64,000 bases of DNA from a virus. Taxonomy: Duplodnaviria > Caudoviricetes. The translations under genes were made by a program, and so were the position numbers. The notes under the pieces are model-generated. The model did no database searches. It was not told the DNA's origin and worked only from the letters and a program-made list of their open reading frames with translations. The stretch is from the IMG/VR virus record IMGVR_UViG_3300024269_004845. The stretch is one strand, 5' to 3'. Shown here piece after piece: positions 1,487 to 46,494 of this stretch (the first letter of the stretch is position 1; every line of letters starts with the position of its first letter).

Positions 1487-3709
1487 TTACTTCTGCATGA
1501 GCAGCATACGTACCTGCTTAACCAGTTCCTTAGAAATATCCTGAGGAGCGCAAGAGATGAGGTTCTTCTCATACATTTCCTTGTACTCACTCATAGTATT
1601 TCGACGGAAACCTTCGTCGCCAAAGAAAATAGCGATAACCTTGATACCTGCCTTACGAGCATTCTTAACGGCAGTCTTAACGTCGTTGATTGCCTGAGAA
1701 TGACTGCGATAGTCAGAAGGCAAACCGTCGGACAAAACCATCAGAATCTTATTCTGTTCCGAGCGCTTCATCAGTTCAGCAGTTGCAACCTTGATGGAGT
1801 AACCATCTTTGTTGCCGCCGCTGAAGCTGCGGCTGGTGCCGTAAGAATAAGCGTAATTGCGAACAGTATCACGGTCTTCAAACTTCTTAACCTGGAAATG
1901 CTTTACACAGTTTCCTTCAGTTGTGAAGTTAGTAATCTTCATTGGCATGAGGGGCTTCAGAGCCTCTTCGATGATGGCACAAGCCATGGTAGAGCGCTTC
2001 TGCTTTTCGCCGCACATAGAACCAGAACCGTCCCAAACAATGCTTACGCAAGAATCTACGTTAAGAGGGTTGCCCTTCTTTTCGAAAATTCTGAAGTCAT
2101 TAGTACCAACTCTGTGGATGGACTTCTTGTTGAGTCTGCCAGAATGCTGGTCAGCGAGGTCGAAAGCTTCCTGCTCACGGAAGAAAGCTTCAAGCTGCTT
2201 ACGAAGCATGCGACCCTGCTTGCGAATTTCATCAGGAGCAGGGAGGCTCACATTTACGTTTACAGCGTCGTAACCTTCGACATGGGGGTCATCATAACCT
2301 TCGCGGATGCTTTCGATATCAGCGGAGCTGAGGTCTTCAGATGCGGCTTCTTCTGCCTCAATCTTCTTGGACTGAGAGGTGTATTCCTTAGCAGCGGATT
2401 CCATACCTTCTTCGATAGCTCTGTCAATTTCTGCTTTTACGGCTTCGTTGACTTCGTTGATATCAGGAGTGCTTCCATCGGCCTGCTTGTTGCCAGAAGA
2501 AGTGCCCTGTCCGTTGTTGTCAGCGTTCTGGCCAGAAGAATCTTCACCATCTTCGCTGCCACCACGTTCGGCATGGTCGGGAGCTTCGCGCTTCGCTGCG
2601 AACGGGTCCTTGGAATAATCCTTACCTTCTTCACCAGAAGAGGAACCCTTGGACTTGTCTTCGCCCTCCTTACCATCTTTACCGTCCTTGCCTTCTCCAT
2701 CCTTGGATTCGCCGTCTTCGCCGTCCTGGTCTCCGTTACCAGCGCCAGTGCCATCCTGCTTCTTATCGGACTTCTTGCCTGCCTGACCTTTACCATTGCC
2801 CTTTCCAGATTTGCCAGGGACACTGATATGGACAGAGAGAGAATCTCCATCGAGGTCAGAATCGGGGCGCTCAAGAGCATTCTTGTTCTGGAAATCGACG
2901 AATTCTGCCAGAAGCTCCATGATTTCCTGCATTGTGGCAGCATCTTCAATCTCGACTAGCAGAAGCTTTTCGAGATAAGGCTTCAGCTTAAGGATAATTC
3001 TCTGAAGCTTTTTAGTAGCTACCAGAGGGCCAGCAATGTTGATGAATTCTGCCACGTCCTTACGAACCAGGTCGACGTTATCGCGGAGTTCCTGGTCGAG
3101 CTTGTCGTAGTACTGAGGGTCTACACCACTGGTTGCCAGATAGCAAAGACACATCATCAGATTGACAACGTTACTCTTTGCAGGAGTATCTGCCATTTTC
3201 CAAAAAGTACCATTCAGGAACTTCAGGTACTTTGCGGAACCAGGATACTTATTGACCACAAAGTGCTCACAACGACCGTCTTCCAATGCATTGTTTAACT
3301 GAGCGGCGATTCTACGTACAACGAGAGGCAACATCTTCTTGCCAGTAGGAGAAAGCTTGGGCTCAAGGTTACTAAATTCCATGATTGCCCAATCCTGGAA
3401 TTTCTTGAACTGACTGAAAGAGCTGAAAAGCAAATGGCTAGTCTCGTGGATGAGCAACGCCATACCCATCATCCATACTTCCATAAAAGTAAAGTTGATG
3501 CCTGCCTTCTTGGAAGCTTCCTTGTGGCCAGGATGGGATTCTAGAGTGAATTCGGGGATGCCAACCGTCACGCCACGGCCATCGGTAAAACTACCGCCAC
3601 CGTAGGGAACGTTGAGACGCAGGTCATGGCGACCTGTCATCATGCACATCTTTCTGAATCCAATCTGCTTCAGCTGGTTCAAAAGTTTCTTCATTTCCTT
3701 GTCTGTCAT
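1487..3709 (-). CDS. CobT-like protein: N-terminal HExxH metallopeptidase-like domain, acidic/Gly linker, C-terminal vWA domain
   Basis: HETSH...NNALEDGRCE; MIDAS DGSGS and LSDGLP. Start moved to the ATG at 3709, which follows AAGGAGG. Confidence 0.8.
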   Translation of the reverse strand: MTDKEMKKLLNQLKQIGFRKMCMMTGRHDLRLNVPYGGGSFTDGRGVTVGIPEFTLESHPGHKEASKKAGINFTFMEVWMMGMALLIHETSHLLFSSFSQFKKFQDWAIMEFSNLEPKLSPTGKKMLPLVVRRIAAQLNNALEDGRCEHFVVNKYPGSAKYLKFLNGTFWKMADTPAKSNVVNLMMCLCYLATSGVDPQYYDKLDQELRDNVDLVRKDVAEFINIAGPLVATKKLQRIILKLKPYLEKLLLVEIEDAATMQEIMELLAEFVDFQNKNALERPDSDLDGDSLSVHISVPGKSGKGNGKGQAGKKSDKKQDGTGAGNGDQDGEDGESKDGEGKDGKDGKEGEDKSKGSSSGEEGKDYSKDPFAAKREAPDHAERGGSEDGEDSSGQNADNNGQGTSSGNKQADGSTPDINEVNEAVKAEIDRAIEEGMESAAKEYTSQSKKIEAEEAASEDLSSADIESIREGYDDPHVEGYDAVNVNVSLPAPDEIRKQGRMLRKQLEAFFREQEAFDLADQHSGRLNKKSIHRVGTNDFRIFEKKGNPLNVDSCVSIVWDGSGSMCGEKQKRSTMACAIIEEALKPLMPMKITNFTTEGNCVKHFQVKKFEDRDTVRNYAYSYGTSRSFSGGNKDGYSIKVATAELMKRSEQNKILMVLSDGLPSDYRSHSQAINDVKTAVKNARKAGIKVIAIFFGDEGFRRNTMSEYKEMYEKNLISCAPQDISKELVKQVRMLLMQK

Positions 3710-3798
3710 ATTTTTTATCCTCCTTAGTATTCTTACCATTTTTGTTTTGAGCTTAATATATTATATAATTAAGCTTCATGAATTATCTAATATAAATC

Positions 3799-3830
3799 AC
3801 AAAAACCAAGACCGAAGTCTTGGTTTTTGT
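3799..3830 (-). terminator. Intrinsic terminator after AAA+ gene
   Basis: ACAAAAACCAAGAC-cgaa-GTCTTGGTTTTTGT. Confidence 0.7.
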
Positions 3831-3839
3831 TTTCTGTGG

Positions 3840-5651
3840 TTACTTAATCATCAGGTCTACGATGCTCTTAACCGCTTCGCGGTCTTCAACATCACGAATC
3901 TTAGGAACGATGGTGCTCATGATAGCACTCTTGATATCGTTACCCAGAGCGATGTTCTGTGCAGCGTAGATGAATGCACGCTGAGAGAAGCTGCGCTCCT
4001 GAATCTCTACACCACGAACACCCTTCAGCTTCTTGTAAAGCTCGTTAAGAATCTTTACGGCCTTAGCGGGAAGAGTAGGAACTTCCTGCTTCAGGATTTC
4101 TGCGATGTTGTCAGGTGCCTCGAACTCGATTACGTGCCAACGGTCCTCAAAGGCGAGGTTCAGCATGCTGGTACCAGCATATTCTGCACCTTCGTTCATA
4201 GTGGCAGTAAAAATAACGTCGTCATTGACTTCGATATTCTTATAACCATTGATGAGGATGTTACGGCGCTTATCGAGGGCGCTGTGGAGAGAAGATGTCA
4301 CAGTAGGACGAAGAGTGTTTACCTCGTCCAGATTGATGAGAGAAGGCTTCTCGAGGGCCTTAGTAAGGATGGAGGGCTCGAACTCAATCTGTGCGGTCTG
4401 AGAACGCATAGCGTCAAACAGAACAGAATAGTCGATATCGCCACCATTTTCCTTAATGGTCTCAATCTGCTCTTCAACGGAAGCGTTAGCGAACGCTTCC
4501 TTATCAATCTTTGCATTTGCGATAGCATCGATGAAAGATGCAAACGCAGCATTTACTGCATCAGGAGAAGGACACTCCTCGCTTGGCTTCATGGACAGAT
4601 AACCGTACAGGCCTTCCTCATCCACACCTGCGGAACAGGTCTTATCGATGAGGTTCAAATCCATGAGGTTGGCAAAGGTGGTAATGAACATGTTCTTACC
4701 ACTACCAGCGGGGCCAACCAGAAGCAGGTTACCCTTGGCGTAAGAGAAGGCGATAGCATTCTCTACTTCCTTGCCATGCGGGATGTAACAAGGAGCAAAC
4801 TCCACGATGTCCTTATGTCCTTCCATCTTCTTCACGAAGAGAGCGATTGCGTATTCAGCAACGCCGACATTCTTCAGCCAGTCGATGCGCTTCTGAACTT
4901 CGGCAGCATCTGCTTCAGCAAAGGACTTCAGAAGCTTATCGTAGTCCTTAGAAGGAGCAGCGACAGCGGCAACCTCTTCCTTCACTTCAACGGTGATGGT
5001 TACAGGGAATACCAGACCATCTACGAACTTAACCTCTGCGGAAGTGTTCTTAGATACCTTCATCGCAGAAACGATATCAGCAACGTTGTCCAGCTTGATA
5101 CCCTTAGCATTTAGGGTAGTCTTTGCAGTAGAGGAAATCTCTGCGGTAGCCATACCGCAAGGAACCTCGTTGTAGTCAAAGACGATGGACTCGTCGTTTT
5201 CAATCTTGGCCACGACAGGAACGGAGCCATTCTTGCGGGAAGCGGAAGCAACCTGCATACGATTAGGGTAGTTGAGCTTATTGCCAGCCAACAGGGTCCA
5301 GTAAGTCTTGGTTACAGTTCCACTGGTAGGAGCAGCGGCTTCCTTAACAGGAATGCCCACCAGAAGAGGGTCAATAGATGTAACCTTAACCAAGTCACCT
5401 TCGGCAACCATATTGAAGACATCCTTTGCCATAGGATATCCATTTGCCGTAGAAGGACGGGCCGCAACGAAACCCACCTCATTGCCATCGGCGGTTTCGA
5501 GCTTGATTGCATAAGGGTCTTCCTTGTAAGTGTTCAAACGAACAACCAGACTATCGCTGGTAGTCAGTCCCTTTGCCATGCTCTTACTAGCGGGTCCAAC
5601 AACGCGAACCTCCTGAATTTCTACGGTATTGTTTTTCTTAGTTCTAGCCAT
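3840..5651 (-). CDS. MoxR/CbbQ/CobS-type AAA+ ATPase with N-terminal HIRAN-like domain(s)
   Basis: Walker A GPAGSGKN, Walker B INLDEVN, sensor ATMN, Arg finger LAFEDRW. N-terminal DPYAIKLETADGNEVGFVA resembles HIRAN. Confidence 0.85.
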   Translation of the reverse strand: MARTKKNNTVEIQEVRVVGPASKSMAKGLTTSDSLVVRLNTYKEDPYAIKLETADGNEVGFVAARPSTANGYPMAKDVFNMVAEGDLVKVTSIDPLLVGIPVKEAAAPTSGTVTKTYWTLLAGNKLNYPNRMQVASASRKNGSVPVVAKIENDESIVFDYNEVPCGMATAEISSTAKTTLNAKGIKLDNVADIVSAMKVSKNTSAEVKFVDGLVFPVTITVEVKEEVAAVAAPSKDYDKLLKSFAEADAAEVQKRIDWLKNVGVAEYAIALFVKKMEGHKDIVEFAPCYIPHGKEVENAIAFSYAKGNLLLVGPAGSGKNMFITTFANLMDLNLIDKTCSAGVDEEGLYGYLSMKPSEECPSPDAVNAAFASFIDAIANAKIDKEAFANASVEEQIETIKENGGDIDYSVLFDAMRSQTAQIEFEPSILTKALEKPSLINLDEVNTLRPTVTSSLHSALDKRRNILINGYKNIEVNDDVIFTATMNEGAEYAGTSMLNLAFEDRWHVIEFEAPDNIAEILKQEVPTLPAKAVKILNELYKKLKGVRGVEIQERSFSQRAFIYAAQNIALGNDIKSAIMSTIVPKIRDVEDREAVKSIVDLMIK

Positions 5652-5695
5652 GTTTTTTTCCTCCCATTAAAATCTTTTGTTTTTTGGATACTAAA

Positions 5696-6976
5696 TTATA
5701 CTGTGAAAACATACTCCATATAAGCCTTTTTAACTTCTTCATCTGGAGATTTTGCATTCACTTTTGTCAGGAGCTTATTGACTCCTGTGTTGAATTGCTC
5801 GAAAGTTTTCATCCGAAGATATGGCCTGACATCGCCAAATTCGGAGATAAGGTCATCGATACCTTTTGTTTCGTCGGTATAATCCCACAGTGCATATTCA
5901 ACGGAAATTCCGTTTGCTTCGAGTTCCTGGCCGAGTTTAGCAGCCTGAGTAAGAACATTAATATTATAGCACATATCGGAGTCATACGCAACGATTACTC
6001 CCGAAAACTTAGGATACAGGGCCTTAAGACCCTTGATGGTACTCATGATTGGGCGCCAATTCGTAACGCCCTGAATACTGATTGCTGACATGCCATACTG
6101 TTTTCTGATTGCAACAGCCTTGAAAAAGCCTTCGGTAATGAACATTTTCTTGGTAAATTTACCAAGTTCAAAGCCAATTGGGCTACCAGGGCTCAAACCA
6201 TCCTGCAGATATGCGTTGTCAGGGTCATCTTTCAGACAAAAGCTGGAAGAAAACCAAACATACTTGTTGTCAGCCTTTGGGTCTCTTTTTCTGATTTGCA
6301 ATCCAACAATTTTACCCTCAAAGTCTTTACATGGGATAATAATGCCAGACTGATATCCGAATGAGAAAGGCTCTCCTTCTTTTTTGAAAAATCCAGGGAC
6401 TTCAAACAAAACGTCTGTTGTTCCGAACTTTTCGGAGACCTTAGACTCTAATTCCTTACGCAGACTCAAGAGTCTGCGAGGAAACGTTTTGAAGCCATAG
6501 GTCTGAATTTCGTCATCCGTGAACCCTCTTGTCTTCAAAAGGGCTGCATCTTCTTCGCTTAATGTAAGCATATCGAGGAAAATTCGATAAACTTCATCCA
6601 TCACTTGAAGATTTAGGACTTTCTTGACCGAAGGAATGGTCAAGATTTTACGCTCTACATCAGTGGAAATACGACCACTGAAATAGCCGAGGTTGAATTC
6701 CTTGGCTAGGCGCTTAACAGCATCGACAAAGCTTAAGCTGTACAGCTCCATGTAGAACTTTACGGGGCCACCAACGATATCCAACTTCCAATCGTGGAAA
6801 ATATTATTGGGAACGTTGATATTAAAAGACCCCAAACTGCCAGAAGGACGAAGCGGGCTTACAGTTTTAAGATTAGGGCCAACGCCACTAAAAACGCAAC
6901 CTACTCCTTCCAGGACTTCTTTTATCGGAAGTGCATTGCACTGTTCCGATAATTCTTCAAATGACTTCTTAGCCAT
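5696..6976 (-). CDS. Primase-like protein: Cys-less CHC2-like domain plus TOPRIM (DUF3854-like)
   Basis: SPLR..GSFNIN..FHDW..GGPVKF..SFVDAVKRL; TOPRIM motifs FITEGFFKA, AYDSD, KGIDD. Confidence 0.75.
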   Translation of the reverse strand: MAKKSFEELSEQCNALPIKEVLEGVGCVFSGVGPNLKTVSPLRPSGSLGSFNINVPNNIFHDWKLDIVGGPVKFYMELYSLSFVDAVKRLAKEFNLGYFSGRISTDVERKILTIPSVKKVLNLQVMDEVYRIFLDMLTLSEEDAALLKTRGFTDDEIQTYGFKTFPRRLLSLRKELESKVSEKFGTTDVLFEVPGFFKKEGEPFSFGYQSGIIIPCKDFEGKIVGLQIRKRDPKADNKYVWFSSSFCLKDDPDNAYLQDGLSPGSPIGFELGKFTKKMFITEGFFKAVAIRKQYGMSAISIQGVTNWRPIMSTIKGLKALYPKFSGVIVAYDSDMCYNINVLTQAAKLGQELEANGISVEYALWDYTDETKGIDDLISEFGDVRPYLRMKTFEQFNTGVNKLLTKVNAKSPDEEVKKAYMEYVFTV

Positions 6977-6997
6977 CGTTATTCTCCTCCTCCCATA

Positions 6998-7597
6998 CTA
7001 GAACGGGCTTTCGCCTACCTTTCTTGACACATCCTCGCCCTGCTGTGTATTTCGTTTCGCATCTCTGATTTTGCGAACGTCGTTACACCACAGAGCTAGA
7101 ACATTTCTCAGAGAACCTACCTTAGTCAGCTTTAGCTCACCGATGATAGAAATCGTATCGCCCTTCAGAACATTCTGATGCAGATAAATCGCGTCTGCAT
7201 CAAAAGCGATGAAAGGCAAGAAGAGTACGATACCTCCATCAGACTTAGACTGGAAAGGAATGTCCTTCATCTCGGGTACGTACTGAATGGACTTCTCGTA
7301 CCGTTCTCGAGAAATATTTACTGCTACAGTGGGCATTCGCAGATTGCGAAGCTCAACAGGAACGCTAGGAGTGTTATGAACTACCTCTTTAACGCCATTG
7401 ATGACCACGTTGTTCGTGGAGGTGGCACCTCGTACATTATCCTTTACCAGATAAAACGGTGTCACCAGCTTACTGCTTCCCTTGCAAAGGAAAGGGAAAT
7501 CATCGGTGGTGTTGCCTACACACTGAACGATATTTCTATCTCTATCGTCGTGTACGGCAAACAGGTAGTTCAAATCCTTTTTGTTGTTCTTCTCCAT
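6998..7597 (-). CDS. Divergent single-stranded DNA-binding protein (OB fold)
   Basis: FLPFIAFDADAIYLHQNVLKGDTISIIGEL matches the SSB core. C-terminus ends in PF. Confidence 0.55.
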   Translation of the reverse strand: MEKNNKKDLNYLFAVHDDRDRNIVQCVGNTTDDFPFLCKGSSKLVTPFYLVKDNVRGATSTNNVVINGVKEVVHNTPSVPVELRNLRMPTVAVNISRERYEKSIQYVPEMKDIPFQSKSDGGIVLFLPFIAFDADAIYLHQNVLKGDTISIIGELKLTKVGSLRNVLALWCNDVRKIRDAKRNTQQGEDVSRKVGESPF

Positions 7598-7619
7598 GTT
7601 TTTTCCTCCTTGGTGTATT

Positions 7620-7645
7620 TGTGCTTATATTATTATATAAATATT
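7620..7645 (-). promoter_or_regulatory. Conserved upstream motif copy (identical 26-mer to 24118-24143)
   Basis: AATATTTATATAATAATATAAGCACA contains a TATAAT -10 and lies just upstream of the ssb RBS. Confidence 0.7.
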
Positions 7646-7773
7646 AAATCTAAATAATAAGCGCAAGCGAACAAAATAATTTACTTATATTAATGATAAC
7701 ACAAAATATCGAAAAAAGAAATGCACATAACATATAAAATTTGTTACGTGCATTTATATATTTTTGTTATGTT

Positions 7774-9474
7774 TTATTTTTGGTTCCTTTGTTCTTGCCA
7801 GATACTATATGCATCGGGATATTCTTCAAGAACAGACTCATCAATAATGAAATTTCCATACTCGTCATAGTGACCTGTAATCTTAATACCACCTTGTTCT
7901 TCAATTAAGACTTCTGGCCTTACATAATCACCAATCTCGTTTCTAACAAGCAATACGCCGTCGCTATCAACTAATTCGCCTTTGGAATTATAATAATTGC
8001 CGTCTTTATTTTGTACGTATTTCACTACTTTTCCGTTGGAATCTATAATATTGTTGTATCTATCAATAAATTCACCATTTTTATTAATAGCTCTTCCTTT
8101 TTCATCAACTCTCTGTCCATACTTATTGATTCTGTCATTATTTTCATCAACGAGTTCTCCATCGCTATTAATAAAGTAATTTTCTCTATTTACCAAACGG
8201 CCATCGCTGTCGTAGTAATAATCATTAATATAAGGCTTGTTTGCTATAAAAATATCGGAATATTTTCTTTCTTGTCCTGTTGGGTCTTTTTTGATTTCTG
8301 CAAAATCACTAGAGCCAATAGAACCTATTAGAAAATAATCTTCATATGGGTTAAACAAATAAACATCTAGGTTTTTAGACAATACTTTTGTTGGTAGATA
8401 AGGAATACCAATAGTGTATAATTCTGCATAGTCATCATATCTGAAAACTCTTAGTTGGCTAAAGTTTTTATTACTAATGGTAGTTTTAAACAACGCGTAA
8501 ATGTTATTGTTTTTATCTACATACATGTGTAATGGATTTGCATATTGGATTTCAATGGCCTTATTAATATTCATATCTTTATAATCTACATTTAGAATTA
8601 AAGATTTTTCAGAACCATCACCAAAGTCACTAATTGTATAAATATTTTTATTTATACCGTCCATATATGTAGAGGTTACTGGGCGAATACTTCCATAATG
8701 TAAAGTTATTTGGTCATTTTCTATATCGTATTGTCCCATTTGAGTTTCATTAAAGAAGTAAATGTACTGAGTATTTGCAACCCAAGTATTAACATTTCCT
8801 GGAAGTTCGTATGTTGCCTTTGAAATTTTGGGGAAATTTGTAAGTTCTATATCAATTGTTGTCATATATTTATCTAAACCAGTATACCCTAAAAATTCTT
8901 TAGAATAATTCTCCATATAAACGTATGTTGCTTCTTTGCTTGTATTTACTGGGACATTTGTTGCATATGATAATTTTCCATCATCTGAAAGAATTTGTGG
9001 TCTGACATAGGAATAAATATTTGCTTTGGTTTCTGGATTATCTGTTGAATAATAAAATAATCCATTATATCCATAAATATCTTCTATATTACTTTCTTTT
9101 AAAATATAGTCTTTCATTGTTTTTAGTTCGTTTTTATAAACTAAAATCATTGTCATTTTTCTGGAAGTCTTATCTACGGCATATAATATGCGAGGCACAT
9201 TTTCGACTCCTTCTAATTGGCTACTATAAAGATTTCCTTCATCCATTGCATAAATATATTCACTTTCTTCGCCGCCGTTCAAATCTATTTCGGAAACAAC
9301 ATTACTTAGGTCGTCAAACATTGTAACAATTCCGTTTTCCGTTGTTAAAATATAATCTCCATTTCTAACAACTTCTGTAACTACATCTTGTTTCTGAGAA
9401 GTAGATGAACAACCTGTTAATATAGAAAAAATTGTACATATTACTAACAAAAGAGATACTCTTTTCTTTATCAT
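7774..9474 (-). CDS. Lipoprotein with beta-rich body and C-terminal short-period repeats
   Basis: Lipobox ILTGC. (D/N)xxG-x-(V/I) repeats near the C-terminus. Confidence 0.7.
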   Translation of the reverse strand: MIKKRVSLLLVICTIFSILTGCSSTSQKQDVVTEVVRNGDYILTTENGIVTMFDDLSNVVSEIDLNGGEESEYIYAMDEGNLYSSQLEGVENVPRILYAVDKTSRKMTMILVYKNELKTMKDYILKESNIEDIYGYNGLFYYSTDNPETKANIYSYVRPQILSDDGKLSYATNVPVNTSKEATYVYMENYSKEFLGYTGLDKYMTTIDIELTNFPKISKATYELPGNVNTWVANTQYIYFFNETQMGQYDIENDQITLHYGSIRPVTSTYMDGINKNIYTISDFGDGSEKSLILNVDYKDMNINKAIEIQYANPLHMYVDKNNNIYALFKTTISNKNFSQLRVFRYDDYAELYTIGIPYLPTKVLSKNLDVYLFNPYEDYFLIGSIGSSDFAEIKKDPTGQERKYSDIFIANKPYINDYYYDSDGRLVNRENYFINSDGELVDENNDRINKYGQRVDEKGRAINKNGEFIDRYNNIIDSNGKVVKYVQNKDGNYYNSKGELVDSDGVLLVRNEIGDYVRPEVLIEEQGGIKITGHYDEYGNFIIDESVLEEYPDAYSIWQEQRNQK

Positions 9475-13727: not shown

Positions 13728-13963
13728 TCAATACTCCTCCTCGCTATCAAAACTTAGTATTTATCTCTATTATATTGGAAAGAGAAATAAAATAATGAAT
13801 TATATCGGCTTAGAACAAAAATATAGTAAAGAAAATACTCTTATATATTCTACAAAACATTTTCATTTTTCATAATATAAAAAAGCCTTGTTAAATGGTT
13901 TTTATGTGATGATTAGGGATAAAGAACTATATAATATAATTAGCAAAGAAAGGAGTTGAAATC

Positions 13964-15235
13964 GTGGCTAAAAGAGTTGAAAAAGTAATGAATGAATATA
14001 GCGATAGAGATTTTCAAGCATTGTTGTCTATATATAATTTTAGATGTTTGTCCATGAATCAATTGTTTGATTTACATTATAGATTTTCTGGGAAAAAGGA
14101 AGTGACTTCTGAGTATTTAAGAAAAAAGATTATTAAAATGAAGAAGGATAATCTAATTGAAGAATCTAGGCTTGTAAGTAAGAAGGCTCCTGTTGTCTAT
14201 TTTTTAACAAATGACGGAATCCAAGCCGTTCGCATGTATTTTAATTTGTCTAATAATATATATGATACTAAGAAGAGAATTCATGAAAGAGGATATTATA
14301 CTTATTCTGAAATAAAAGTGGCAGATAGATTTATTCCACATCAATATAACTTGAATCAATTTGCTTTGACTTCTATTGATTACTTAAAAAGTAAAGATAT
14401 TGGATACTCATATGTTGATGAAAGACATGTTTCTCAAACATATGGAATTCGACCAGATGGGATTTTATCGACTTTGGGGTTAGATATATTTTTAGAAATG
14501 GATATGGGAACCGAATCATTGTCTCAGTTGAAAGAAAAATGGAATCATTATAGGAGTTATTTAGGGTCTCAAAGCTATATAGATAATGGGAAAAAGATTA
14601 TTATATTTTTCATTTGTTATAATAAAGGCAATATTACGGAAAGAATTAAAGTCATAAAAAATTCATTAAATGAGCATTTTATAGATTGTTTAAAAGAAGT
14701 TGAAGTGTATGTGGGATTACCAGAAAAATTAATGTCGGTATTAAAAAACATAATTGTTCCTTTTTACACGACTGGCAAAAGTGAAATGTATGAAGAATTA
14801 ATTACCAATATTAAACGACATGAATTTAAAGTTGCTTCTGGTATTCAAATGGCAAAATATTTAGACAATACAAATTATACATTTTATATTAAAAATGAAG
14901 ATGGGAAAGATTTTTTAGTTCATGAATTTTTTGGAGAACCTATCGGTGCTATGAACAGAGTCGTTTTCCATGAAAAAATTAATAATTTATTTGAGAAAAA
15001 ATTTAATAAATCTTTGCCATTACTTTTGATTGGAACAAACGAAGATACAATAATTGAAAATATAGATTTATTTGTTGTTTCTGATATCCCAAATGTATAT
15101 TTTTCTACATTAAAAAGGTTGAATACTATGCCTTTTAATGAAGCATTATTTAAAATAATGCCAGATGGTAGTATTTATTCATTCACTGAAGACTTTCAAA
15201 ATATAAAACAAACGGAGAAAATAAATAAAAAATAA
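13964..15235 (+). CDS. Replication-relaxation family protein (MOB_C-like relaxase candidate)
   Basis: SDRDFQALLSIYNFRCLSMNQL, YFLTNDG, HQ, intact IRPDG...FLEMDMGTESLSQLKEKWNHY. Confidence 0.8.
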   Translation: MAKRVEKVMNEYSDRDFQALLSIYNFRCLSMNQLFDLHYRFSGKKEVTSEYLRKKIIKMKKDNLIEESRLVSKKAPVVYFLTNDGIQAVRMYFNLSNNIYDTKKRIHERGYYTYSEIKVADRFIPHQYNLNQFALTSIDYLKSKDIGYSYVDERHVSQTYGIRPDGILSTLGLDIFLEMDMGTESLSQLKEKWNHYRSYLGSQSYIDNGKKIIIFFICYNKGNITERIKVIKNSLNEHFIDCLKEVEVYVGLPEKLMSVLKNIIVPFYTTGKSEMYEELITNIKRHEFKVASGIQMAKYLDNTNYTFYIKNEDGKDFLVHEFFGEPIGAMNRVVFHEKINNLFEKKFNKSLPLLLIGTNEDTIIENIDLFVVSDIPNVYFSTLKRLNTMPFNEALFKIMPDGSIYSFTEDFQNIKQTEKINKK

Positions 15236-15417
15236 TTTATATTGTCGGGGTTCATCCCGACAATATTTTTTGTTACCAAAAAATCTTTGTAATGCTTGAA
15301 ATTGCTTGACTTTGTATTAATAATGTGATATTTTGTATATGTAACAGTAATGACATTCTTGCTATTATAAGCGGGAATGTTTATTTATTAAGTTAGTGTT
15401 TAGAGAGGAGTTTATTT

Positions 15418-16761
15418 ATGTTTAGTAGTACTAATGTAAAAATGTTAAACAAAAACAAATATAAGACAACCGAAAAAACATTGGCTCAAAAGATATTTTT
15501 TACGTCAATGATTTTAGTAATTCTTCAATTTTTATCTCAAATTCCTATTTGGGGGATAAACCGAGATTTAATTAGTTTTTGGTTAAATAGCGACATGAGT
15601 GGTATTTTTGGAATATTTAATATTTTTTCTGGTATGTCGTTTGAGAATCTTTCATTCTTTGCTTTAGGTATTGCGCCATATATTAGCGCATCAATTATTT
15701 TGCAATTATTGAGAGTTGCAATTACTCCTTTGGACCAGATGTGTAAAGACGCACAAAATGAAAAGAAGTTTGTAGAAAAAATTACTTATGGGTTTGCAAT
15801 TATTATTGGTATTTTACAAGTGATTCCTTTGGTGATGAATTTTTCGACTAGCGGTTTATTGGTTAATAACAGTTTTTCTTGTAAGCTTTTAGTTGGTGCT
15901 TCCATCTTATTCGGTAGTGCGATAATGATTGCTTTAGGCAAGATAATTGAAAATAAGGGGATTGGTAATGGTATTTCATTAATATTGTTAATGAATATCT
16001 TGTCATCTATGCGTGGTGACTTCATAAATATTTATAATACTTTTATTTACAATAACGAAATTACAACTATTATTTTAACTGTTTTGATTGCTGTACTGGT
16101 CCTGACATTTTCTTTTGTTTCCGTTATTTATCTGTGTGAAGGGAAGAAAGATATAAAGGTTACTTTTTCTGGTAAAATGCATGGCGGGAAAATGGTTAAA
16201 TCTGCAGATAATATTATTCCCCTAAAGGTTAATATGTCTGGTGTTATGCCAGTTATTTTCGCATCTACATTAATTCAATTGATTCCTATGATTACTGCCA
16301 TACTAAATGTTTCTGAAACTAGTATCTTGAACGAAATTTCAAAATATTTTAATCAAATATATTGGTTTGATTTTTCGAATATCCAATATACTTTTGGTAT
16401 CTTAATTTATTTTGTATTGATTGTCTTTTTTTCTTATTTTTATAATATGATATCTTTCAGTTCAAAAGATATCGCTGACAATCTTAACAAGCAAGGTGGA
16501 ACAATTGCAGGTATTAGGCCAGGTAAATCAACTAAAGAGTATTTAGATGGGCAAATTAAGTATATGGTATTATTAGGTTCGTTAATGTTAATTATTATTT
16601 CTATTATTCCAATGATTATTGGTGGAGTAATCAACATTAACTTAGCTTTTGGGGGAACATCTATTATTATTGTAGTAAGCGTATTAATTGAAACTTATAA
16701 AACAATTAAATTGGAAAAACAGAGAGAAACTGTTGCTCCTAGAAGATATAGCGTATTTTAA
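15418..16761 (+). CDS. secY: Preprotein translocase subunit SecY
   Basis: FALGIAPYISASIILQLL, GIGNGISL, IPLKVNMSGVMPVIFAS, GIRPGKST, FGGTSIIIVV. Confidence 0.95.
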   Translation: MFSSTNVKMLNKNKYKTTEKTLAQKIFFTSMILVILQFLSQIPIWGINRDLISFWLNSDMSGIFGIFNIFSGMSFENLSFFALGIAPYISASIILQLLRVAITPLDQMCKDAQNEKKFVEKITYGFAIIIGILQVIPLVMNFSTSGLLVNNSFSCKLLVGASILFGSAIMIALGKIIENKGIGNGISLILLMNILSSMRGDFINIYNTFIYNNEITTIILTVLIAVLVLTFSFVSVIYLCEGKKDIKVTFSGKMHGGKMVKSADNIIPLKVNMSGVMPVIFASTLIQLIPMITAILNVSETSILNEISKYFNQIYWFDFSNIQYTFGILIYFVLIVFFSYFYNMISFSSKDIADNLNKQGGTIAGIRPGKSTKEYLDGQIKYMVLLGSLMLIIISIIPMIIGGVININLAFGGTSIIIVVSVLIETYKTIKLEKQRETVAPRRYSVF

Positions 16762-16774
16762 GGGGGAAAACAAT

Positions 16775-16936
16775 ATGTTTAAGAAATTAAAAAATGAAAT
16801 TAACAGAATTAAATGGCCTGACAAATGGTTACTTGCTGAAGATTTAAAAGTTGTCTGTATTGGAGTGATTGGTTTAATACTTGCAATATCTATTATTGAT
16901 TGGCTTTCTAAGTTAACGCTTGGATTAATATTTTAA
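16775..16936 (+). CDS. secE: Preprotein translocase subunit SecE (53 aa)
   Basis: MFKKLKNEINRIKWP..VV..IID is the SecE signature, followed by one TM. ATG after a GGGG RBS. Confidence 0.8.
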   Translation: MFKKLKNEINRIKWPDKWLLAEDLKVVCIGVIGLILAISIIDWLSKLTLGLIF

Positions 16937-17118
16937 AACTAGTGTAATGGCTCGAGATTATTTCTCGAGCCATTATTATTTGTTTTTCTTTAGACATTTT
17001 GTCAAACAATTCTTCTATTTAATTATATCTCATATAACATTATAATGAAATTATGAAATAATTTTTTATATGATTTTTTTACAAAAAATAATAAATAACA
17101 AGGAGATGCAAAAATAAT

Positions 17119-17886
17119 ATGAAAAAGATTCTTTCGACTGTTTTATGCTTGGTTATGATATTAAGTCTAGGCGTTACTGCGTTTGCAGAAACAAATGAAT
17201 TTGTTCTTACTTATAGCAATGAAGCCAGCTATGAGATTTCTATACCTGAAAGTGGGAACATAGATGTTACTAATGGTAAAGGTACTATTACCATTGGAGT
17301 AACAGAAACTAATTTAGCAGATGGAACTGTTGTTAGTGTTACTGCTACTTCTGCCAATTATACTGATGATTCTTGGTATTTAGTTAATACTAAAGATAGT
17401 AGTGACAAGATGGCTTATACTGTTGGTACTACTGATGGTGGTAGTGATGTAGCAAGTGGTGATGAAGTTTTATCTGCTGATAGTGCTACCTCTACTACTC
17501 TTTATGTAACACTAAGTGATACAAGCAAGATTGGTACTTTTACAGATACTATTACTTTTACTAGTGAGATTGAAGCGGCTATGGTTACTGTGATAGTCAA
17601 TGAAATCGATACTAGCTATGCGGAGCTTTATGTAAAAGGTGATGACAATATGTTATACGGGGGCACTTATCAGTTCCCAGTTGGAACAATTTTAGAGTGT
17701 TGGATAAGTGACTGGAGTGATGATAGTGATTATGATGGTATCGTTATAAATGGAAGCTGGATAATGGGTGCTGGACATAATAGTAGCATAACTTATGACT
17801 ATATCCTTACTAAAAATGTAACAATTGATGTGGGGGCTGATGTGCTTGGTTATGAAGAAGGTCGTATTGAGATAACTGAACAATAA
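17119..17886 (+). CDS. Secreted beta-rich acidic protein
   Basis: Signal peptide ending TAFA; SYEISIP...GTFTDTITFT pattern of surface Ig-like subunits. Confidence 0.6.
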   Translation: MKKILSTVLCLVMILSLGVTAFAETNEFVLTYSNEASYEISIPESGNIDVTNGKGTITIGVTETNLADGTVVSVTATSANYTDDSWYLVNTKDSSDKMAYTVGTTDGGSDVASGDEVLSADSATSTTLYVTLSDTSKIGTFTDTITFTSEIEAAMVTVIVNEIDTSYAELYVKGDDNMLYGGTYQFPVGTILECWISDWSDDSDYDGIVINGSWIMGAGHNSSITYDYILTKNVTIDVGADVLGYEEGRIEITEQ

Positions 17887-17959
17887 TATACTTAAATTAT
17901 AATGTCTATATAAATAACCCCTTGTGGATATTCCACAAGGGGTTATTGTTATATATTGA

Positions 17960-18664: not shown

Positions 18665-19717
18665 TTATTCGACGTTGAAGAGGTCTTCTTCATTTCCTGG
18701 TTCATCTTCGTCAACAACAGGGGTACCAGGTTCCACATTGACACAGCGAAGCTGGTCTTCAATTTTCTTAAAGATGTCTGGATTTGTCTTTAAGAAATCA
18801 TATACGGAATTTCTTCCTTGTCCAATTCTTTCTCCATCATAAGAGAACCAGGAACCAGATTTAACTATAAGATTTTTTTCTACTGCAAAATCGATAAGAC
18901 TTAGGATTCTATCAAATCCTTCGCCAAAGCGAACTTCTACAATAGTTTCCTTAAACGGAGGAGCTACCTTATTTTTAACAACTTTGATTTTGGTCTTGGC
19001 TCCAACAACTTCGGAACCTTCTTTGGTTGCTTCAGCTTTTCTAACTTCTACTCTGATAGACGAGTAGAATTTTAATGCGCGTCCACCAGTGGTTACTTCG
19101 GGATTGCCATACATGACTCCAACCTTTTCTCGAAGCTGGTTAATGAAGATTACTGTACAATCCATATTGGAAGCGATTGCTGTTAGCTTACGCATCGCTT
19201 TCGACATTAATCTTGCATGCAGTCCAACAAAGTTGTCTTCCATTTCTCCTTCGATTTCAGCCTTTGGAACAAGAGCTGCTACAGAGTCGATAACGACTAA
19301 ATCAACAGCTCCAGAAGAAATTAAATCACAAGCAATTTCAATTGCCTGTTCTCCATTGTCAGGCTGAGAGATAATCATATCATCAATATTTACTCCCAAC
19401 TTTGCAGAATATACAGGGTCTAAAGCATGTTCTGCATCAATAAATGCAACCATTCCATCATGGTCTCTTTGGATTGCTGCTACGGCCTGTAATGCAAGGG
19501 TTGTTTTACCCGAAGACTCTGGGCCGTAAATTTCAACAATTCTACCTCTTGGCAAGCCTCCGCCAAGAATATTGTCAATGGCAACAAGGCCTGTTGAAAA
19601 TTTCTTGACATCGCTAATACCGCTATCGCTCATAAACATAGCAGCGCCTTTGCCAAACTTCTTGTCAATTTCGTTGAGCTTTTTCTTTAAAAGCTCTCGT
19701 TTTTCCGCACTTGGCAT
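18665..19717 (-). CDS. recA: Recombinase RecA
   Basis: GGLPRGRIVEIYGPESSGKTT, DAEHALDP, FINQLREKVGVMYGNPEVTTGGRALKFY. Confidence 0.98.
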   Translation of the reverse strand: MPSAEKRELLKKKLNEIDKKFGKGAAMFMSDSGISDVKKFSTGLVAIDNILGGGLPRGRIVEIYGPESSGKTTLALQAVAAIQRDHDGMVAFIDAEHALDPVYSAKLGVNIDDMIISQPDNGEQAIEIACDLISSGAVDLVVIDSVAALVPKAEIEGEMEDNFVGLHARLMSKAMRKLTAIASNMDCTVIFINQLREKVGVMYGNPEVTTGGRALKFYSSIRVEVRKAEATKEGSEVVGAKTKIKVVKNKVAPPFKETIVEVRFGEGFDRILSLIDFAVEKNLIVKSGSWFSYDGERIGQGRNSVYDFLKTNPDIFKKIEDQLRCVNVEPGTPVVDEDEPGNEEDLFNVE

Positions 19718-20860: not shown

Positions 20861-21409
20861 TTATGCTACAGGCAAGAAAAAATGGACTATGAATAGAACA
20901 ATATATCCTGCGTAAAAGAATGGGGCAAGGGGGACCCTGCCAGTTGCTTTAAAAGGTAAATATCCAAATTTACCTAAGCTTTGTATGTGGAATTCTTTAT
21001 TTTCTTTTTTGCCAAACATTACTCTATATACTAAGTTTAACAATGTACCAGCTAACGCGAGAAATAATGCAGGAATAGCACCGCACCAAAGTCCTAAATT
21101 AAAAGCGAATTTAATGTCTCCACCTATTTGGTCTTTTGCCATTGCCGCTGGAATCCAGAAAGCTAGGCACAAAATAAATGCTCCAAATATACAGTCCAGT
21201 ACATATCCTAAAGATATTAAATCTGGGAAGAAAATACCTAAAATAACAAACCAAAGAGTTCTAACAATTAACATTACCAAGTTAAACTTGTTATATATCT
21301 TCATAGTTTTGCAATCGGTATATGTAGCAATAATTAAGAAAATGTTTAAAATAATAATTTCTGGAAGAAATTCAAATAATCTTAAGATTGGGTCAAAAAT
21401 ATATTGCAT
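20861..21409 (-). CDS. A24 family prepilin peptidase (TadV/CpaA-like)
   Basis: ATYTDCKTMKIYN, GGDIKF, VPLAPF; multi-TM. Confidence 0.8.
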   Translation of the reverse strand: MQYIFDPILRLFEFLPEIIILNIFLIIATYTDCKTMKIYNKFNLVMLIVRTLWFVILGIFFPDLISLGYVLDCIFGAFILCLAFWIPAAMAKDQIGGDIKFAFNLGLWCGAIPALFLALAGTLLNLVYRVMFGKKENKEFHIQSLGKFGYLPFKATGRVPLAPFFYAGYIVLFIVHFFLPVA

Positions 21410-30057: not shown

Positions 30058-30240
30058 GTGATTGCGTTGATTAATAGAATGAAATACGCCATTACAGGAG
30101 AAAACGGCGGGCCAACCGTTGAATTAATAGTTGCTATTTCTGTCGCATTAACGTTTGTAATTGCTCTTGGGAGTTTGGCAGCTACCGTTATTTCGTGGAT
30201 TGCTGGCGCCACTGGTGCAGTTTCATCCCTTCATGAATAA
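30058..30240 (+). CDS. Flp-type pilin
   Basis: Leader GENG|GPTVE with Glu+5, then a hydrophobic helix; about 60 aa. Confidence 0.7.
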   Translation: MIALINRMKYAITGENGGPTVELIVAISVALTFVIALGSLAATVISWIAGATGAVSSLHE

Positions 30241-30254
30241 TGGGGGTGGTGCAA

Positions 30255-30863
30255 ATGTTTAAAAAACTCAAGAATAATAACAACGGTAATATAGAAATAA
30301 CACGTGTAATTTGTTATTTTTACTTAATAATTTGCATCGCATTTGTACTTGATATAATTTTCGTAATCGGTCAAAATGTTGTAACTTCTTATGAGGCTGC
30401 ATATTACGCGGAAAAGATATCTATCCAGGGTGGGTTAGTCGGAGATAAAGCGTTTTATCCATCAATAGCTGAAGTAAAGAAAATGAATGGGGCTAATGCT
30501 TGTTATACTTACCAAAAGCCATGTGAAAATAGTTGCTTACCAAATGGAACGATAACTGAAAGAATATCGACAACACTTGGATATTTCGGAGTTGCGCCAA
30601 ATGAATGGGCTGGCTATTTACAAGGAGGGGGAGAAACCACAGTATTCCATTCCAAAATGAATCAGGCTACAGGTGGAGATAAAAGAAAGGTTTATGATTA
30701 TATGTCTACCGCAACCTTTATTATTAGTTCCGACTGGCAACCCATATTCGCTAAATATTTATGGGCTGAAGATTTTTACACAATTGAAAAGTATGTGCCG
30801 ATTGTTATTGAATATATTCCTCAAGTAAATCCAAATGATGATGCCTGCAAGAATCTTTATTGA
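30255..30863 (+). CDS. TadE-like minor pilin
   Basis: Basic leader KKLKNNNNG| then hydrophobic helix, AAYYA..IS..GG. Confidence 0.6.
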   Translation: MFKKLKNNNNGNIEITRVICYFYLIICIAFVLDIIFVIGQNVVTSYEAAYYAEKISIQGGLVGDKAFYPSIAEVKKMNGANACYTYQKPCENSCLPNGTITERISTTLGYFGVAPNEWAGYLQGGGETTVFHSKMNQATGGDKRKVYDYMSTATFIISSDWQPIFAKYLWAEDFYTIEKYVPIVIEYIPQVNPNDDACKNLY

Positions 30864-30878
30864 GGAGGTTGATATCAT

Positions 30879-31460
30879 ATGAATTTTTTCAATAAAATAA
30901 AAAACAATAAAGGTAGTGCTGAAAGTGCTATGTTTGTTTTTGGTCTTGCGATATTTGCGACTATAGTAGTGTTTTCAATGGATATATTTGGACTTACTTG
31001 GCAGCGTTATTTATCAACTAGAGAGCTTTCGAATATGTCGCGTTTATACGCTATTAGAGCAACGGACTTGTATATTGATGATTCCCAATCAGGTGTTCTG
31101 GACAGTATGATAACCACTCCAGACAAATCAGACTTGGGGAAAGAAATGGCAGATATCATGAAAATGATTGTCGCTCACGGGAAAATAGATAATGCAGTTT
31201 TGACCATAACAAAGGGTCCTGGGGGAGTTCAGTTATTAAGAATCACAGCTGATAGAAATTCCACTGATATAGTTGCAGCAGGATACGAACAAATAAAAGT
31301 TTTAGATTATGGTGATGATTTAATTGCTGAATTAAAAATAGAATATAATAATTCTACTTTTAAGGGCGTTGGAGCTCAAGAAAAATCAAAAAACTCATAT
31401 GTGATTCAAAACAAATTTGCATTTGAAGACTTTGCTCATGATGGAAACAATGTTGGATAA
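30879..31460 (+). CDS. TadE/F-like minor pilin
   Basis: KIKNNKG|SAE then hydrophobic helix, SRLYA. Confidence 0.6.
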   Translation: MNFFNKIKNNKGSAESAMFVFGLAIFATIVVFSMDIFGLTWQRYLSTRELSNMSRLYAIRATDLYIDDSQSGVLDSMITTPDKSDLGKEMADIMKMIVAHGKIDNAVLTITKGPGGVQLLRITADRNSTDIVAAGYEQIKVLDYGDDLIAELKIEYNNSTFKGVGAQEKSKNSYVIQNKFAFEDFAHDGNNVG

Positions 31461-31472
31461 GGAGGTATTGCT

Positions 31473-32030
31473 ATGATAAAAAAGTTAAAAAATAATAATC
31501 GTGGTGGTGCCGACCTCCAATTTGCAATTGCAACATTCTTATATATGTTTGTTGTCTGTGTTGGGTTATTGCTAGACTTTTGGTACGTTTCTTCTGCAAA
31601 AGTACATGTTTTAAAGACTGTAGAAGCTGCAGAATTATATTGTCTAGTTACTAATGCTCCTGAAAGTCATCACGATGCATCTGCAAAATACGAAAGTCTT
31701 TGGGAAATGAATTTAGCTGCTAACCAACAAGCTGCTTTGAATTGTGCTAAACCAGAGTTAGAAGCTCGTTTGGGTAATTTACCATATCTTAAACCTGGCG
31801 ATGAGGGTCTTGATATTCAGCATGTCTTTGGGTTAGGTAACACAATAGGACAAATGGGGATAAGTACTGAGATGAGATATCAAGTAAAAACAATGATTAG
31901 AAGTCCTCAACAATTATTTAACTTCATGAGACCTGACAACCTAGAATTAACGGCTGCAAGATGGGTTCCATTAAAGGTAACTTCTAAACTAGTACCTATG
32001 TTGGAAGACCAACATATTGCTGATTCTTAA
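31473..32030 (+). CDS. TadG-like minor pilin
   Basis: KKLKNNNRG|G then hydrophobic helix, GLLLD..K..L...EAA. Confidence 0.6.
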   Translation: MIKKLKNNNRGGADLQFAIATFLYMFVVCVGLLLDFWYVSSAKVHVLKTVEAAELYCLVTNAPESHHDASAKYESLWEMNLAANQQAALNCAKPELEARLGNLPYLKPGDEGLDIQHVFGLGNTIGQMGISTEMRYQVKTMIRSPQQLFNFMRPDNLELTAARWVPLKVTSKLVPMLEDQHIADS

Positions 32031-35280: not shown

Positions 35281-37071
35281 TTAGCTTTTATAATATTTAT
35301 TGCCAAGTACTCCAGACTTTTTGACAATTACATTATCATCTGCTAGCTTTTCTAATTCTATAATTAGCTCTGAAGGCTTATAAATATGGCCTAACATCGC
35401 TCGTACTTTATCAACTACTTCATCTATCTTTACTTCATCAACTGGCAAAGTTCTAATTAAAGCCTTTTGCAAAGAGGTTAATTCAATAACTGATAGTTCG
35501 TCAAATGGGTTTGATTTTGCTTTGACATCTGTTACATTATATCTAATTAACACACTTAGAGTTTTCCCATAGATACTACTAGAAATGAATGATTCACCAG
35601 AATTGATATATGGCAAGCGTTCGATTTCTTCCTGTGATAAGTCAGTTTCTTTTTGAATAGACAACAAATCTTCTTTTATGCTAAGTTTAAAAATAAACTT
35701 CGTTGACATTTGAGCAACCACTGTTTCGTCTAGTAATGATGGACGTTGAGTTGCCATAATCTCAAATACCCCATATTTTCTACCTTCTTGAGCAATTGTT
35801 CTTAGTATAGTTTTTATTGGGGATTTGCTTTCATTTTTTGGACAGAAGATATGTGCTTCATCCATGGCAATGACAAACGGCAAAAAAGGTTCTCTCATTA
35901 TTCCAGAATCTTTTGAATCTATATAGTCTTTTCTTAAAAGATATAGTTTAGAAATTAAATAAGAGCCAACAATGTTAAGAGATTTCATTTCTCCTCTTAA
36001 AACACATGTTTGCTTTCTCGATAAAGCATTTTTTAAATCGGTTATATCTTTATTAAAAATCCCAGTTGAATTAATAGCATTAATTCTCCAAGAAATACCA
36101 ATTAAAGTTGTAGATGTTGGGATTATATTTTTATACTTATCCCAAAGGTCTTTTTCTGTGGGGGACATTGATTTGTCATCTAATGTTCCTTGTTCTAGTT
36201 GGCTTTTAAAATCAATCAGTGTTTTTATATTATTTGTTAAATTAACATATGTAGTTCCTTTTCTATGTAACTCTCGTAACAAATTTTCCATTGGTCCAGA
36301 AAGTTCACCCGAAAATCCCATAATTTTAATTAGTTCATCAGTGGTTAGCTCTGAAAAATCTATACCAACATTGTTACCAATTGTAAAAATTTGGAACTTT
36401 TTAGAATAATCTTTTTGGAGCTCTTTGGGGATATCGGTACGAGGAGTTGAAAAATTCATCTCCATATGTGGGTCGAATAAGATTGTTGGGATATTTTTGT
36501 TCATCATTTCCTCTGCAATAACTTTTAGTGCAAAAGTTTTGCCCGAGCCAGAACCTCCAAATAACCCAATATGAGGAGCTTCGCTCATTTTTTTATAATC
36601 AAATAATAATGGTACAGACGTTTGATTTAGCATTTGGTTGTTTTTTCTAACCATGAAAAGATTTTTATGGTTGTCTGGTACCGTATTCATAAATATATCT
36701 GTGCCATTGATTTCTCCTAATACAAAGCTATCTTCGATATTTTGTTTTACTAGGAATGGCTTTATTTTTTCAAACGTGGGTAATTTAACTAACGACCCAG
36801 ATTTGACTGGTTTTTTTATATAGTTTTCTACTTTTGCAGTTGCTATATAGATATTTTTTTCGTCTTTGAAGAAAAATTCTATATCTGGATATAAATCTCT
36901 CTCGGTCGCTTTTACGGTATCTATAGATAAATTTTCACTCTTAATAATTCTACAAACAGGGTTGTTATTGTCTGCATCCTCTATTTCGTAAAAATTATCT
37001 ATTTGAAATGGTTCATCCGTAGTTGCAAGTGTTACTATAAATGGGTTTGTTTTACCAACTATTCTTATCAA
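35281..37071 (-). CDS. HerA family ATPase/DNA translocase
   Basis: HAS-barrel-like N-terminus, HIGLFGGSGSGKT, MDEAH, QEGRKYG, ATQRP. Confidence 0.9.
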   Translation of the reverse strand: MIRIVGKTNPFIVTLATTDEPFQIDNFYEIEDADNNNPVCRIIKSENLSIDTVKATERDLYPDIEFFFKDEKNIYIATAKVENYIKKPVKSGSLVKLPTFEKIKPFLVKQNIEDSFVLGEINGTDIFMNTVPDNHKNLFMVRKNNQMLNQTSVPLLFDYKKMSEAPHIGLFGGSGSGKTFALKVIAEEMMNKNIPTILFDPHMEMNFSTPRTDIPKELQKDYSKKFQIFTIGNNVGIDFSELTTDELIKIMGFSGELSGPMENLLRELHRKGTTYVNLTNNIKTLIDFKSQLEQGTLDDKSMSPTEKDLWDKYKNIIPTSTTLIGISWRINAINSTGIFNKDITDLKNALSRKQTCVLRGEMKSLNIVGSYLISKLYLLRKDYIDSKDSGIMREPFLPFVIAMDEAHIFCPKNESKSPIKTILRTIAQEGRKYGVFEIMATQRPSLLDETVVAQMSTKFIFKLSIKEDLLSIQKETDLSQEEIERLPYINSGESFISSSIYGKTLSVLIRYNVTDVKAKSNPFDELSVIELTSLQKALIRTLPVDEVKIDEVVDKVRAMLGHIYKPSELIIELEKLADDNVIVKKSGVLGNKYYKS

Positions 37072-46481: not shown

Positions 46482-46494
46482 GGAGTTTTTAGAT

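Follow-up and report, generated by a model that had tools for sequence, protein, structure and literature searches.

A 64,000-nucleotide (nt) stretch of DNA filed as a virus of the Caudoviricetes (IMG/VR record IMGVR_UViG_3300024269_004845; the whole stretch is hereafter called the window) carries a secY-secE gene pair at positions 15418-16936. We consider it probable that this pair is a functional SecYE-core operon on a giant, conjugative, plasmid-like element of low guanine-plus-cytosine (GC) content, the nearest cellular SecY proteins being those of Lachnospiraceae. The SecYEG channel is usually viewed as a single-copy, essential and vertically inherited core machine. An earlier reading made from the letters of the window alone (the sequence-only reading) had proposed a stand-alone secY-secE operon outside the chromosomal contexts and on mobile-element DNA, and both parts of this proposal held in the present analysis.

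The operon encodes a canonical SecY and a short SecE

The secY gene (15418-16761, + strand) encodes 447 amino acids (aa) of a canonical-type SecY belonging to an element-restricted clade, and secE (16775-16936, + strand) encodes a 53-aa protein with one C-terminal transmembrane helix and a K/R-rich N-terminus that contains a WPD motif. The stop codon of secY and the ATG of secE at 16775 are 13 nt apart, and a Shine-Dalgarno sequence, AAGGGGG, is located 8 nt upstream of this ATG. A longer open reading frame (ORF) starting with TTG at 16688 overlaps secY and was rejected as secE; the ATG at 16775 was taken as the true start. The arrangement noted in the sequence-only reading, a full-length SecY followed 13 nt later by SecE, is confirmed. 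Window SecY scored 304.5 bits against TIGR00967 (cut-off 253.6), spanning model positions 2-410 of 414, and 251.6 bits against PF00344. Window SecE, which is of the short one-helix Gram-positive type, scored 31.8 bits against PF00584 (cut-off 22.7) and 29.6 bits against TIGR00964 (cut-off 27.55). Residue W14, in the basic segment with the W-P motif that precedes the helix, was invariant across 10 element SecEs.

The top sequence match of window SecY in the PDB was a Geobacillus-type SecY (E = 1.7e-63, residues 22-432), and its nearest solved relatives were the SecY proteins of Geobacillus, Thermus and E. coli. An AlphaFold2 model with a predicted local distance difference test score (pLDDT) of 67.7 was aligned by Foldseek with SecY of T. 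thermophilus (5AWW_Y) at template-modelling scores of 0.80/0.84 and E = 3e-21; by model and search, window SecY has the ten-helix SecY/Sec61-alpha fold. Functional residues were mapped on an alignment with the E. coli SecY sequence of NC_000913.3. The E. coli pore ring (I82, I86, I187, I191, I278 and I408) corresponds to I85, I89, I186, L190, I280 and I418 in window SecY, and chromosomal Lachnospiraceae SecYs share the resulting I/I/I/L/I/I pattern. Window SecY also has the plug motif F-x-x-F-S-G (F67-x-x-F70-S-G), so that neither the ring nor the plug shows degeneracy. In the C5 loop, R367 (equivalent to E. coli R357) was invariant in 40/40 clade members.

Structure prediction of the SecY-SecE complex gave a score of 0.50 (individual runs 0.50, 0.50 and 0.54) against 0.00 for the best control, classed by the tool as weak support; as complexes of this textbook pair have already been solved, the score may only reflect likeness to them. 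Contact agreement between runs was at least 95%, and the partner pLDDT was at least 72. Of 80 solved complexes, 58 passed the mark applied to these predictions, as did 2 of 110 mismatched pairs, and scores of 0.60 or lower came from just 7 of the 80 solved complexes and from both mismatches over the mark.

A SecY paralogue beyond the housekeeping channel, encoded outside the spc operon, is also what an accessory SecA2/SecY2-type system for glycosylated serine-rich adhesins, as in streptococci and staphylococci, would provide. This assignment is most improbable here. Against the SecY2 models TIGR02920 and NF009082, window SecY scored 101.3 and 105.8 bits, far below the cut-offs of 249.6 and 353, whereas the canonical model TIGR00967 was passed. 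The main ORFs of at least 90 aa in the 64-kb window were scanned with Pfam and NCBIfam, and the Pfam scan revealed no secA2, asp, gtf or serine-rich repeat gene among them, in line with the lack of secA2/asp genes beside secY that had been noted before. To our knowledge, SecY2 loci carry no secE.

Expression signals around secY and secE

A promoter-like site (TTGACT-17-TATTTT, with an extended -10 element, TG before the hexamer) is located at 15306-15334 (+ strand). Its core, TTGAC and TGTG-n-TATT, is kept in contig L089, a related locus whose SecY is 79% identical to window SecY. Between this site and secY, the 5' untranslated region contains a hairpin (15352-15381, + strand) that leaves the Shine-Dalgarno sequence of secY (GAGAGGAG, ~15403) free. 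The minimum free energy of the hairpin is -18.2 kcal/mol (z = -3.27), with 0/200 shuffled sequences equally stable, and both stem arms are kept in L089, two sequences being compared. The leader hairpin of the sequence-only reading is thereby substantiated. It matched no Rfam family, the sole matches being two sub-threshold ones on the upstream terminator. The hairpin could act as a stabiliser of the mRNA or as an attenuator; a U-rich tract was also observed after it, ahead of secY.

The unit is bounded on its 5' side by the terminator of the upstream Replic_Relax gene (15239-15266, + strand; 12-bp stem and T-run), at the place of which L089 has a hairpin of other sequence. On its 3' side, the expected terminator after secE was found at 16944-16976 (+ strand), with a 14-bp stem, 6 GC pairs and a T-run; its hairpin can be read on either strand. 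Both terminators are strong and intrinsic, and the 2.1-kb sec region contains six terminator-like sites, compared with 0.6 expected.

The window has the gene content of a conjugative element

Directly upstream of the sec unit lies a gene for a Replic_Relax protein of the relaxase/replication type (13964-15235, + strand; 68.5 bits), and a VirD4-type coupling protein is encoded at 32840-34762 (- strand; PF02534 220.5 bits, together with TraG-D_C). With these two genes the window encodes both the relaxase-type and the type IV coupling protein expected of a conjugative element. An ATPase encoded at 35281-37071 (- strand) is HerA/FtsK-like, reaching only 24 bits against the VirB4 model with its cut-off of 643. 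Genes of a Tad/Flp-type pilus are represented by a prepilin peptidase (A24; 20861-21409), two small Flp-type pilins in which a short basic leader precedes a G-G-P-[ST]-V-E motif (30058-30240, + strand, and 40910-41095, - strand), TadE/F-like pseudopilin genes near these pilins (30240-32030) and TadB/C-like proteins, and three PcfJ genes are present as well. The window also holds orphan housekeeping-type genes, namely those for RecA, RuvC, RecD2, topoisomerase III, an RNase R-like protein, an Mre11-Rad50-like protein, HU and an S1-domain protein.

On the basis of this gene content and of the absence of the SecY clade from the sampled genomes described below, the element is best described as plasmid-like. 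Its host group would be gut-type Clostridia; the nearest cellular SecYs are those of Lachnospiraceae. The average GC content of the window is 34%, with a richer island (~41-47%) at ~2-8 kb and ~30% elsewhere. The island (~2000-8000) carries VWA/CobT-like, MoxR-type AAA+ and DUF3854-primase genes and looks like a separate acquisition.

The pair lies outside the chromosomal contexts of secY and secE

Chromosomal-type loci were represented by one metagenomic control and the best 80 matches among 185,579 GTDB species genomes, with 35-41% identity. In 81/81 of these loci, two or more of the genes for L15, L30, S5, Adk and Map lie beside secY, in contrast to 0/11 element loci with any of them, and none of these five spc neighbours had a match in the 64-kb window. 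Three Lachnospiraceae genomes each contained one secY and one secE, 97 kb to 2.4 Mb apart, and in Lacrimispora secE resides in rpmG-secE-nusG-rplK, 160 kb from secY. These data agree with the chromosomal arrangement from which the sequence-only reading had set the window apart, with secY in the spc operon, secE by nusG and the two not adjacent. Identity between window SecY and the nearest cellular SecYs was ~35-42%, and no element-type SecY was found in 401 sampled Lachnospiraceae species genomes, where the top identity was at most 42%.

Trees were computed with FastTree (123 sequences) and with a quick IQ-TREE run (LG+G4; 45 sequences). Both placed window SecY in a supported element-type clade separate from chromosomal SecY (Shimodaira-Hasegawa (SH)-like support 98 in FastTree; SH approximate likelihood-ratio test 97 in IQ-TREE). 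This clade is nested in a wider long-branch assemblage (support 96 and 94) that includes the IMG/VR contigs L097 (290 kb) and L098. The assemblage is separate from the chromosomal Lachnospiraceae clade, and all of these sequences together form one group with support 99. Because the methods were quick and the branches are long, the deep placements are provisional. Two sequences with 39% identity, P0046 and P0047, were considered as element-type; the tree puts both with the chromosomal type, and they were left out of the clade statistics.

Relatives of window SecY occur on contigs up to 652 kb in length, as would be seen if the window were part of a small chromosome and the pair were the housekeeping secYE, and sole translocon, of a reduced cellular genome. 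This explanation is very unlikely. It is at odds with the VirD4, Replic_Relax, PcfJ and Tad genes, with the lack of all five spc neighbours in 64 kb of DNA when secY is in the spc operon in each of the 81 cellular loci, and with the absence of the clade both from the 401 Lachnospiraceae genomes and from the best 80 GTDB matches. Moreover, the surroundings of secYE differ completely among clade members, as expected of mobile-element cargo.

The gene pair is conserved among relatives and under purifying selection

A search of 5.8 billion proteins yielded a graded series of metagenomic SecYs, from 93% down to ~43% identity to window SecY, on contigs of up to 652 kb, below which chromosomal Lachnospiraceae SecYs followed at ~38%; the clade as a whole spans 41-93% identity. 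The contig of P0007 (137 kb) and L089 are syntenic with the window in the order RuvC ... Replic_Relax-secY-secE ... RecA ... prepilin peptidase-PcfJ. In all related loci for which DNA was available (10/10), a SecE-like ORF with a Shine-Dalgarno sequence was found at -4 to +13 nt from the end of secY. PF00584 was assigned to the ORF downstream of secY in the contigs of P0007, P0041 and P0122, and in P0130 an overlapping 58-aa ORF follows secY. Distant clade members have neighbourhoods quite unlike that of the window and always retain the SecE-like ORF after secY. The adjacent pair is hence kept, without spc neighbours, in every clade member inspected in metagenome contigs. Megablast of positions 13900-17900 against plasmid and phage collections gave no match. 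A search of viral contigs with the single window SecY returned nothing, and the same search with an alignment as query returned 21 distant loci.

Relatives at ~45% identity have the operon secA - PemK-like - secY - secE beside a gene for a large surface protein of the SpaA/SdrD type, and in the contig of P0122 secYE is flanked by genes for proteins of >3,259 aa and >4,255 aa. The PemK/MazF-like toxin-fold gene between secA and secY encodes 170 aa (L005:6826-7335; L006 and L007:7473-7985). Its frame overlaps or abuts those of its sec-operon neighbours in L005-L007, and its role as a partner in a translocon operon is unexplained.

Relative to the syntenic L089, the ratio of nonsynonymous to synonymous substitution rates (dN/dS) was 0.11 for secY and 0.16 for secE, and other within-clade pairs gave 0.07-0.12. 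These low values indicate that both genes are under purifying selection. A hitch-hiking or decaying paralogue without function would be consistent with the divergence of window SecY, which shares 38% identity with its closest cellular counterpart, and with a SecE that barely exceeds its cut-offs. It fits poorly with a dN/dS of ~0.1 for both genes, with frames that are intact and key residues that are invariant across ~40 clade members, and with the conservation of both the secY-secE coupling and the regulatory signals. We regard such decay as hardly credible.

Comparison with known systems

Compared with housekeeping SecYEG, the window encodes a canonical SecY, as judged by profile, fold, pore ring, plug and C5 arginine, and a one-helix SecE. 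It differs in that the two genes are adjacent, have their own promoter-like site and terminator, lie on a mobile element and lack a secG: no two-helix SecG-like small ORF was found within the 64-kb window. Type I signal peptidases (SipP) are borne on the Bacillus subtilis plasmids pTA1015 and pTA1040, where a mobile element likewise supplies an extra LepB-type peptidase; in the window, such a peptidase occurs with SecYE on the same replicon.

The closest precedent is Hodor, a group of human-gut conjugative megaplasmids of >300 kb with 44.6-47.1% GC (Yuan et al., bioRxiv 2026, PMC12934698). These plasmids carry Rep_3 with ParA/ParB/ParM and a co-transcribed hyp-secY-secG-secE operon beside genes for trigger factor, sortase B and giant surface proteins (7,300 aa), which the authors propose to be exported via the plasmid's own channel (PMC12934698). 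Hodor and the window share the general theme of giant conjugative plasmid-like elements of gut Bacillota with a small Sec operon outside the ribosomal-protein context. The window differs in its GC content of 34% and in having no secG, sortase, trigger factor or giant gene. Contigs that resemble Hodor (L106 and L107, 42% GC) encode SecYs that are 32% identical to window SecY and lie elsewhere in the tree. Since the window lacks the testable Hodor features and its SecY is of another lineage, it represents a different element family with the same theme. Apart from the Hodor preprint, we found no publication on mobile-element secY-secE pairs. Inocle (Streptococcus, 32% GC) was considered as the element family and no link was made, as SecY is unmentioned in the Inocle paper and the nearest cellular SecYs are those of Lachnospiraceae.

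Other IMG/VR contigs with SecY (L095-L115, 90-325 kb) often encode SecA, SecE or SecG as well. Their architectures include secY-secG-secE (42% GC), secA-secY-secG, secY-secE-secA and secY alone, and their SecYs have 24-38% identity and belong to different lineages. Together, the differing architectures and lineages suggest several independent captures of Sec genes by giant elements. Five of the IMG/VR records were tested for marker genes, with VirD4 present in 2/5, SecA in 3/5 and an HK97-type capsid protein in 0/5. These "viral" contigs probably represent giant plasmids that were classified as viruses, as was likewise found by the Hodor authors (PMC12934698).

The cytosolic face of element-clade SecY is changed

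Clade-specific positions were defined by conservation of 85% or more in chromosomal Lachnospiraceae SecYs and retention of 15% or less in the element clade; residue numbers are those of E. coli SecY. In transmembrane helix (TM) 1, the segment FRIG...IPxPG, with R34, G36 and P42, is replaced by LQFL...IPIWG, and WLGE, with W173 and E176, is replaced by ALGK. R121 and P287 (TM7) are replaced as well, as are K347, F352 and P354 in the C5 loop, and Y429 in the C-terminal tail is changed to T/S/V. In the C4 loop, the equivalents of the basic residues K250 and R255 are G/S/N. The C4 loop, the C5 loop and the C-terminal tail of SecY are docking sites for SecA and the ribosome. Changes of this docking surface throughout the clade hint at changed partner usage, with the reservation that loop alignments are uncertain.

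Several points weaken the reading as a functional operon on a plasmid-like element. The replaced residues R34, G36, P42, R121, W173, E176, P287, K347, F352, P354 and Y429 are conserved from E. coli to Clostridia, and the substitutions in the element clade could mean that its function is altered or partly impaired. The margin of SecE over both of its profile cut-offs is narrow. Taken alone, the promoter motif is at chance level, with 18 sites in the DNA compared with 14.8 ± 4.3 in shuffled sequences; of the promoter-like site at ~15306-15334 that had been pointed out before, the conservation of the core in L089 stands and the bare motif does not. Finally, the absence of the clade from GTDB species genomes applies to the best 80 matches listed.

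The changed surface raises the possibility, which we put forward tentatively, of an orthogonal or insulating translocon: its cytosolic face may suit clients or motors of the element, or may free the element from variation in, or antagonists of, the host translocon and so widen the host range. The clade-wide replacements at the SecA and ribosome contact regions (C4, C5 and C-tail) speak for such a translocon, as do the secA gene in the sec operon of the ~45%-identity relatives, next to the large SpaA/SdrD-type gene, the location of secYE in P0122 between genes for two very large proteins, and the proposal made for Hodor that giant surface proteins pass through the plasmid's own channel (PMC12934698). 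Conversely, the window itself has neither a secA nor a giant surface-protein gene, the gene after secE varies among close relatives, and the argument leans on loops, the least reliable part of the alignment. A broader and somewhat more doubtful proposition is that these SecYE pairs form an ancient, large radiation that is confined to mobile elements and is the sister group of Lachnospiraceae SecY, in which remodelled docking surfaces would serve an orthogonal export pathway for envelope proteins of giant plasmids and some lineages would have their own SecA. If this were true, giant plasmids would carry their own membrane-biogenesis machinery, easing their establishment in unrelated hosts.

A signal peptidase and candidate clients of the translocon

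The signal peptidase I gene that the sequence-only reading had located at 53922 is confirmed as lepB (53922-54452, - strand), which encodes a type I signal peptidase of 176 aa with 152 bits against TIGR02227 (cut-off 47) and 143 bits against PF10502. At 37 kb from the sec operon, it is a separate locus and not a member of the operon. A TraF-type, pilin-processing peptidase was rejected as an identity for this protein, the TraF model giving 44.9 bits against a cut-off of 100. The Flp pilins would be processed by the A24 peptidase, not by LepB.

In a crude census, ~30/63 ORFs encoded a signal peptide, lipobox or hydrophobic segment, which supports the earlier impression of many membrane, pilus and lipoprotein products in the window. 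A secreted 255-aa protein is encoded directly downstream of secE; neither this protein nor the neighbour genes of lepB had any match in NCBIfam or Pfam. Two polytopic proteins were also noted, an AI-2E family transporter (59794-60897, + strand) and a small multidrug-export protein (46420-46947, + strand), and both would be clients of the Sec/YidC pathway.

Proposed mechanism and implications

We propose that transcription of the operon would start at a promoter of its own and stop at the terminator that follows secE, and that secE, which begins 13 nt after secY, would be translated from a separate Shine-Dalgarno sequence, an arrangement expected to give roughly matched amounts of the two subunits. 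The SecYE pair would then be inserted in the host membrane beside the host SecYEG. No SecA, SecG, YidC, sortase or trigger factor was found in the Pfam and NCBIfam scans of the main ORFs of at least 90 aa in the window. Because these genes are missing from the window, the channel would be driven by the SecA or the ribosome of the host, probably without a dedicated SecG. Together with the LepB of the element, it may add to or customise the export and membrane insertion of Tad/Flp pilus components, parts of the type IV secretion system, lipoproteins and secreted proteins. It is plausible that the element thus has a translocon reserved for its envelope proteins, which might also widen its host range.

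As the general kind of system is known from Hodor, the novelty of the window lies in the secYE-only architecture, in the breadth and coherence of the clade and in the remodelled cytosolic face; the Hodor report (2026) came first (PMC12934698), and the present locus adds to a picture that was already taking shape. A broad, strongly conserved lineage of SecY-SecE pairs on giant conjugative elements shows that even the main protein-export channel belongs to the mobile genes of gut Firmicutes. One practical consequence is that copies borne on such elements can mislead phylogenies or binning that use secY as a marker. If the channel proved selective for clients of the element, it would add a new layer to plasmid autonomy, could be a determinant of host range, and secretion engineering would find in it a natural source of orthogonal translocons.

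Split genes in the window's relatives

Two further observations concern other genes of these elements. RecA is encoded in the window by a single intact gene of 350 aa (18665-19717). In L089 (8529-9951) and in the contig of P0007, recA was called as two ORFs (214 aa and 156-167 aa) that are ~275-310 nt apart, and the gap might be due to an intron, to an intervening element or to disruption of this element-borne gene. In another secYE-bearing contig (L092:1-5927), DnaE (PolIII alpha) is encoded in at least three pieces that are interleaved with LAGLIDADG homing-endonuclease ORFs.

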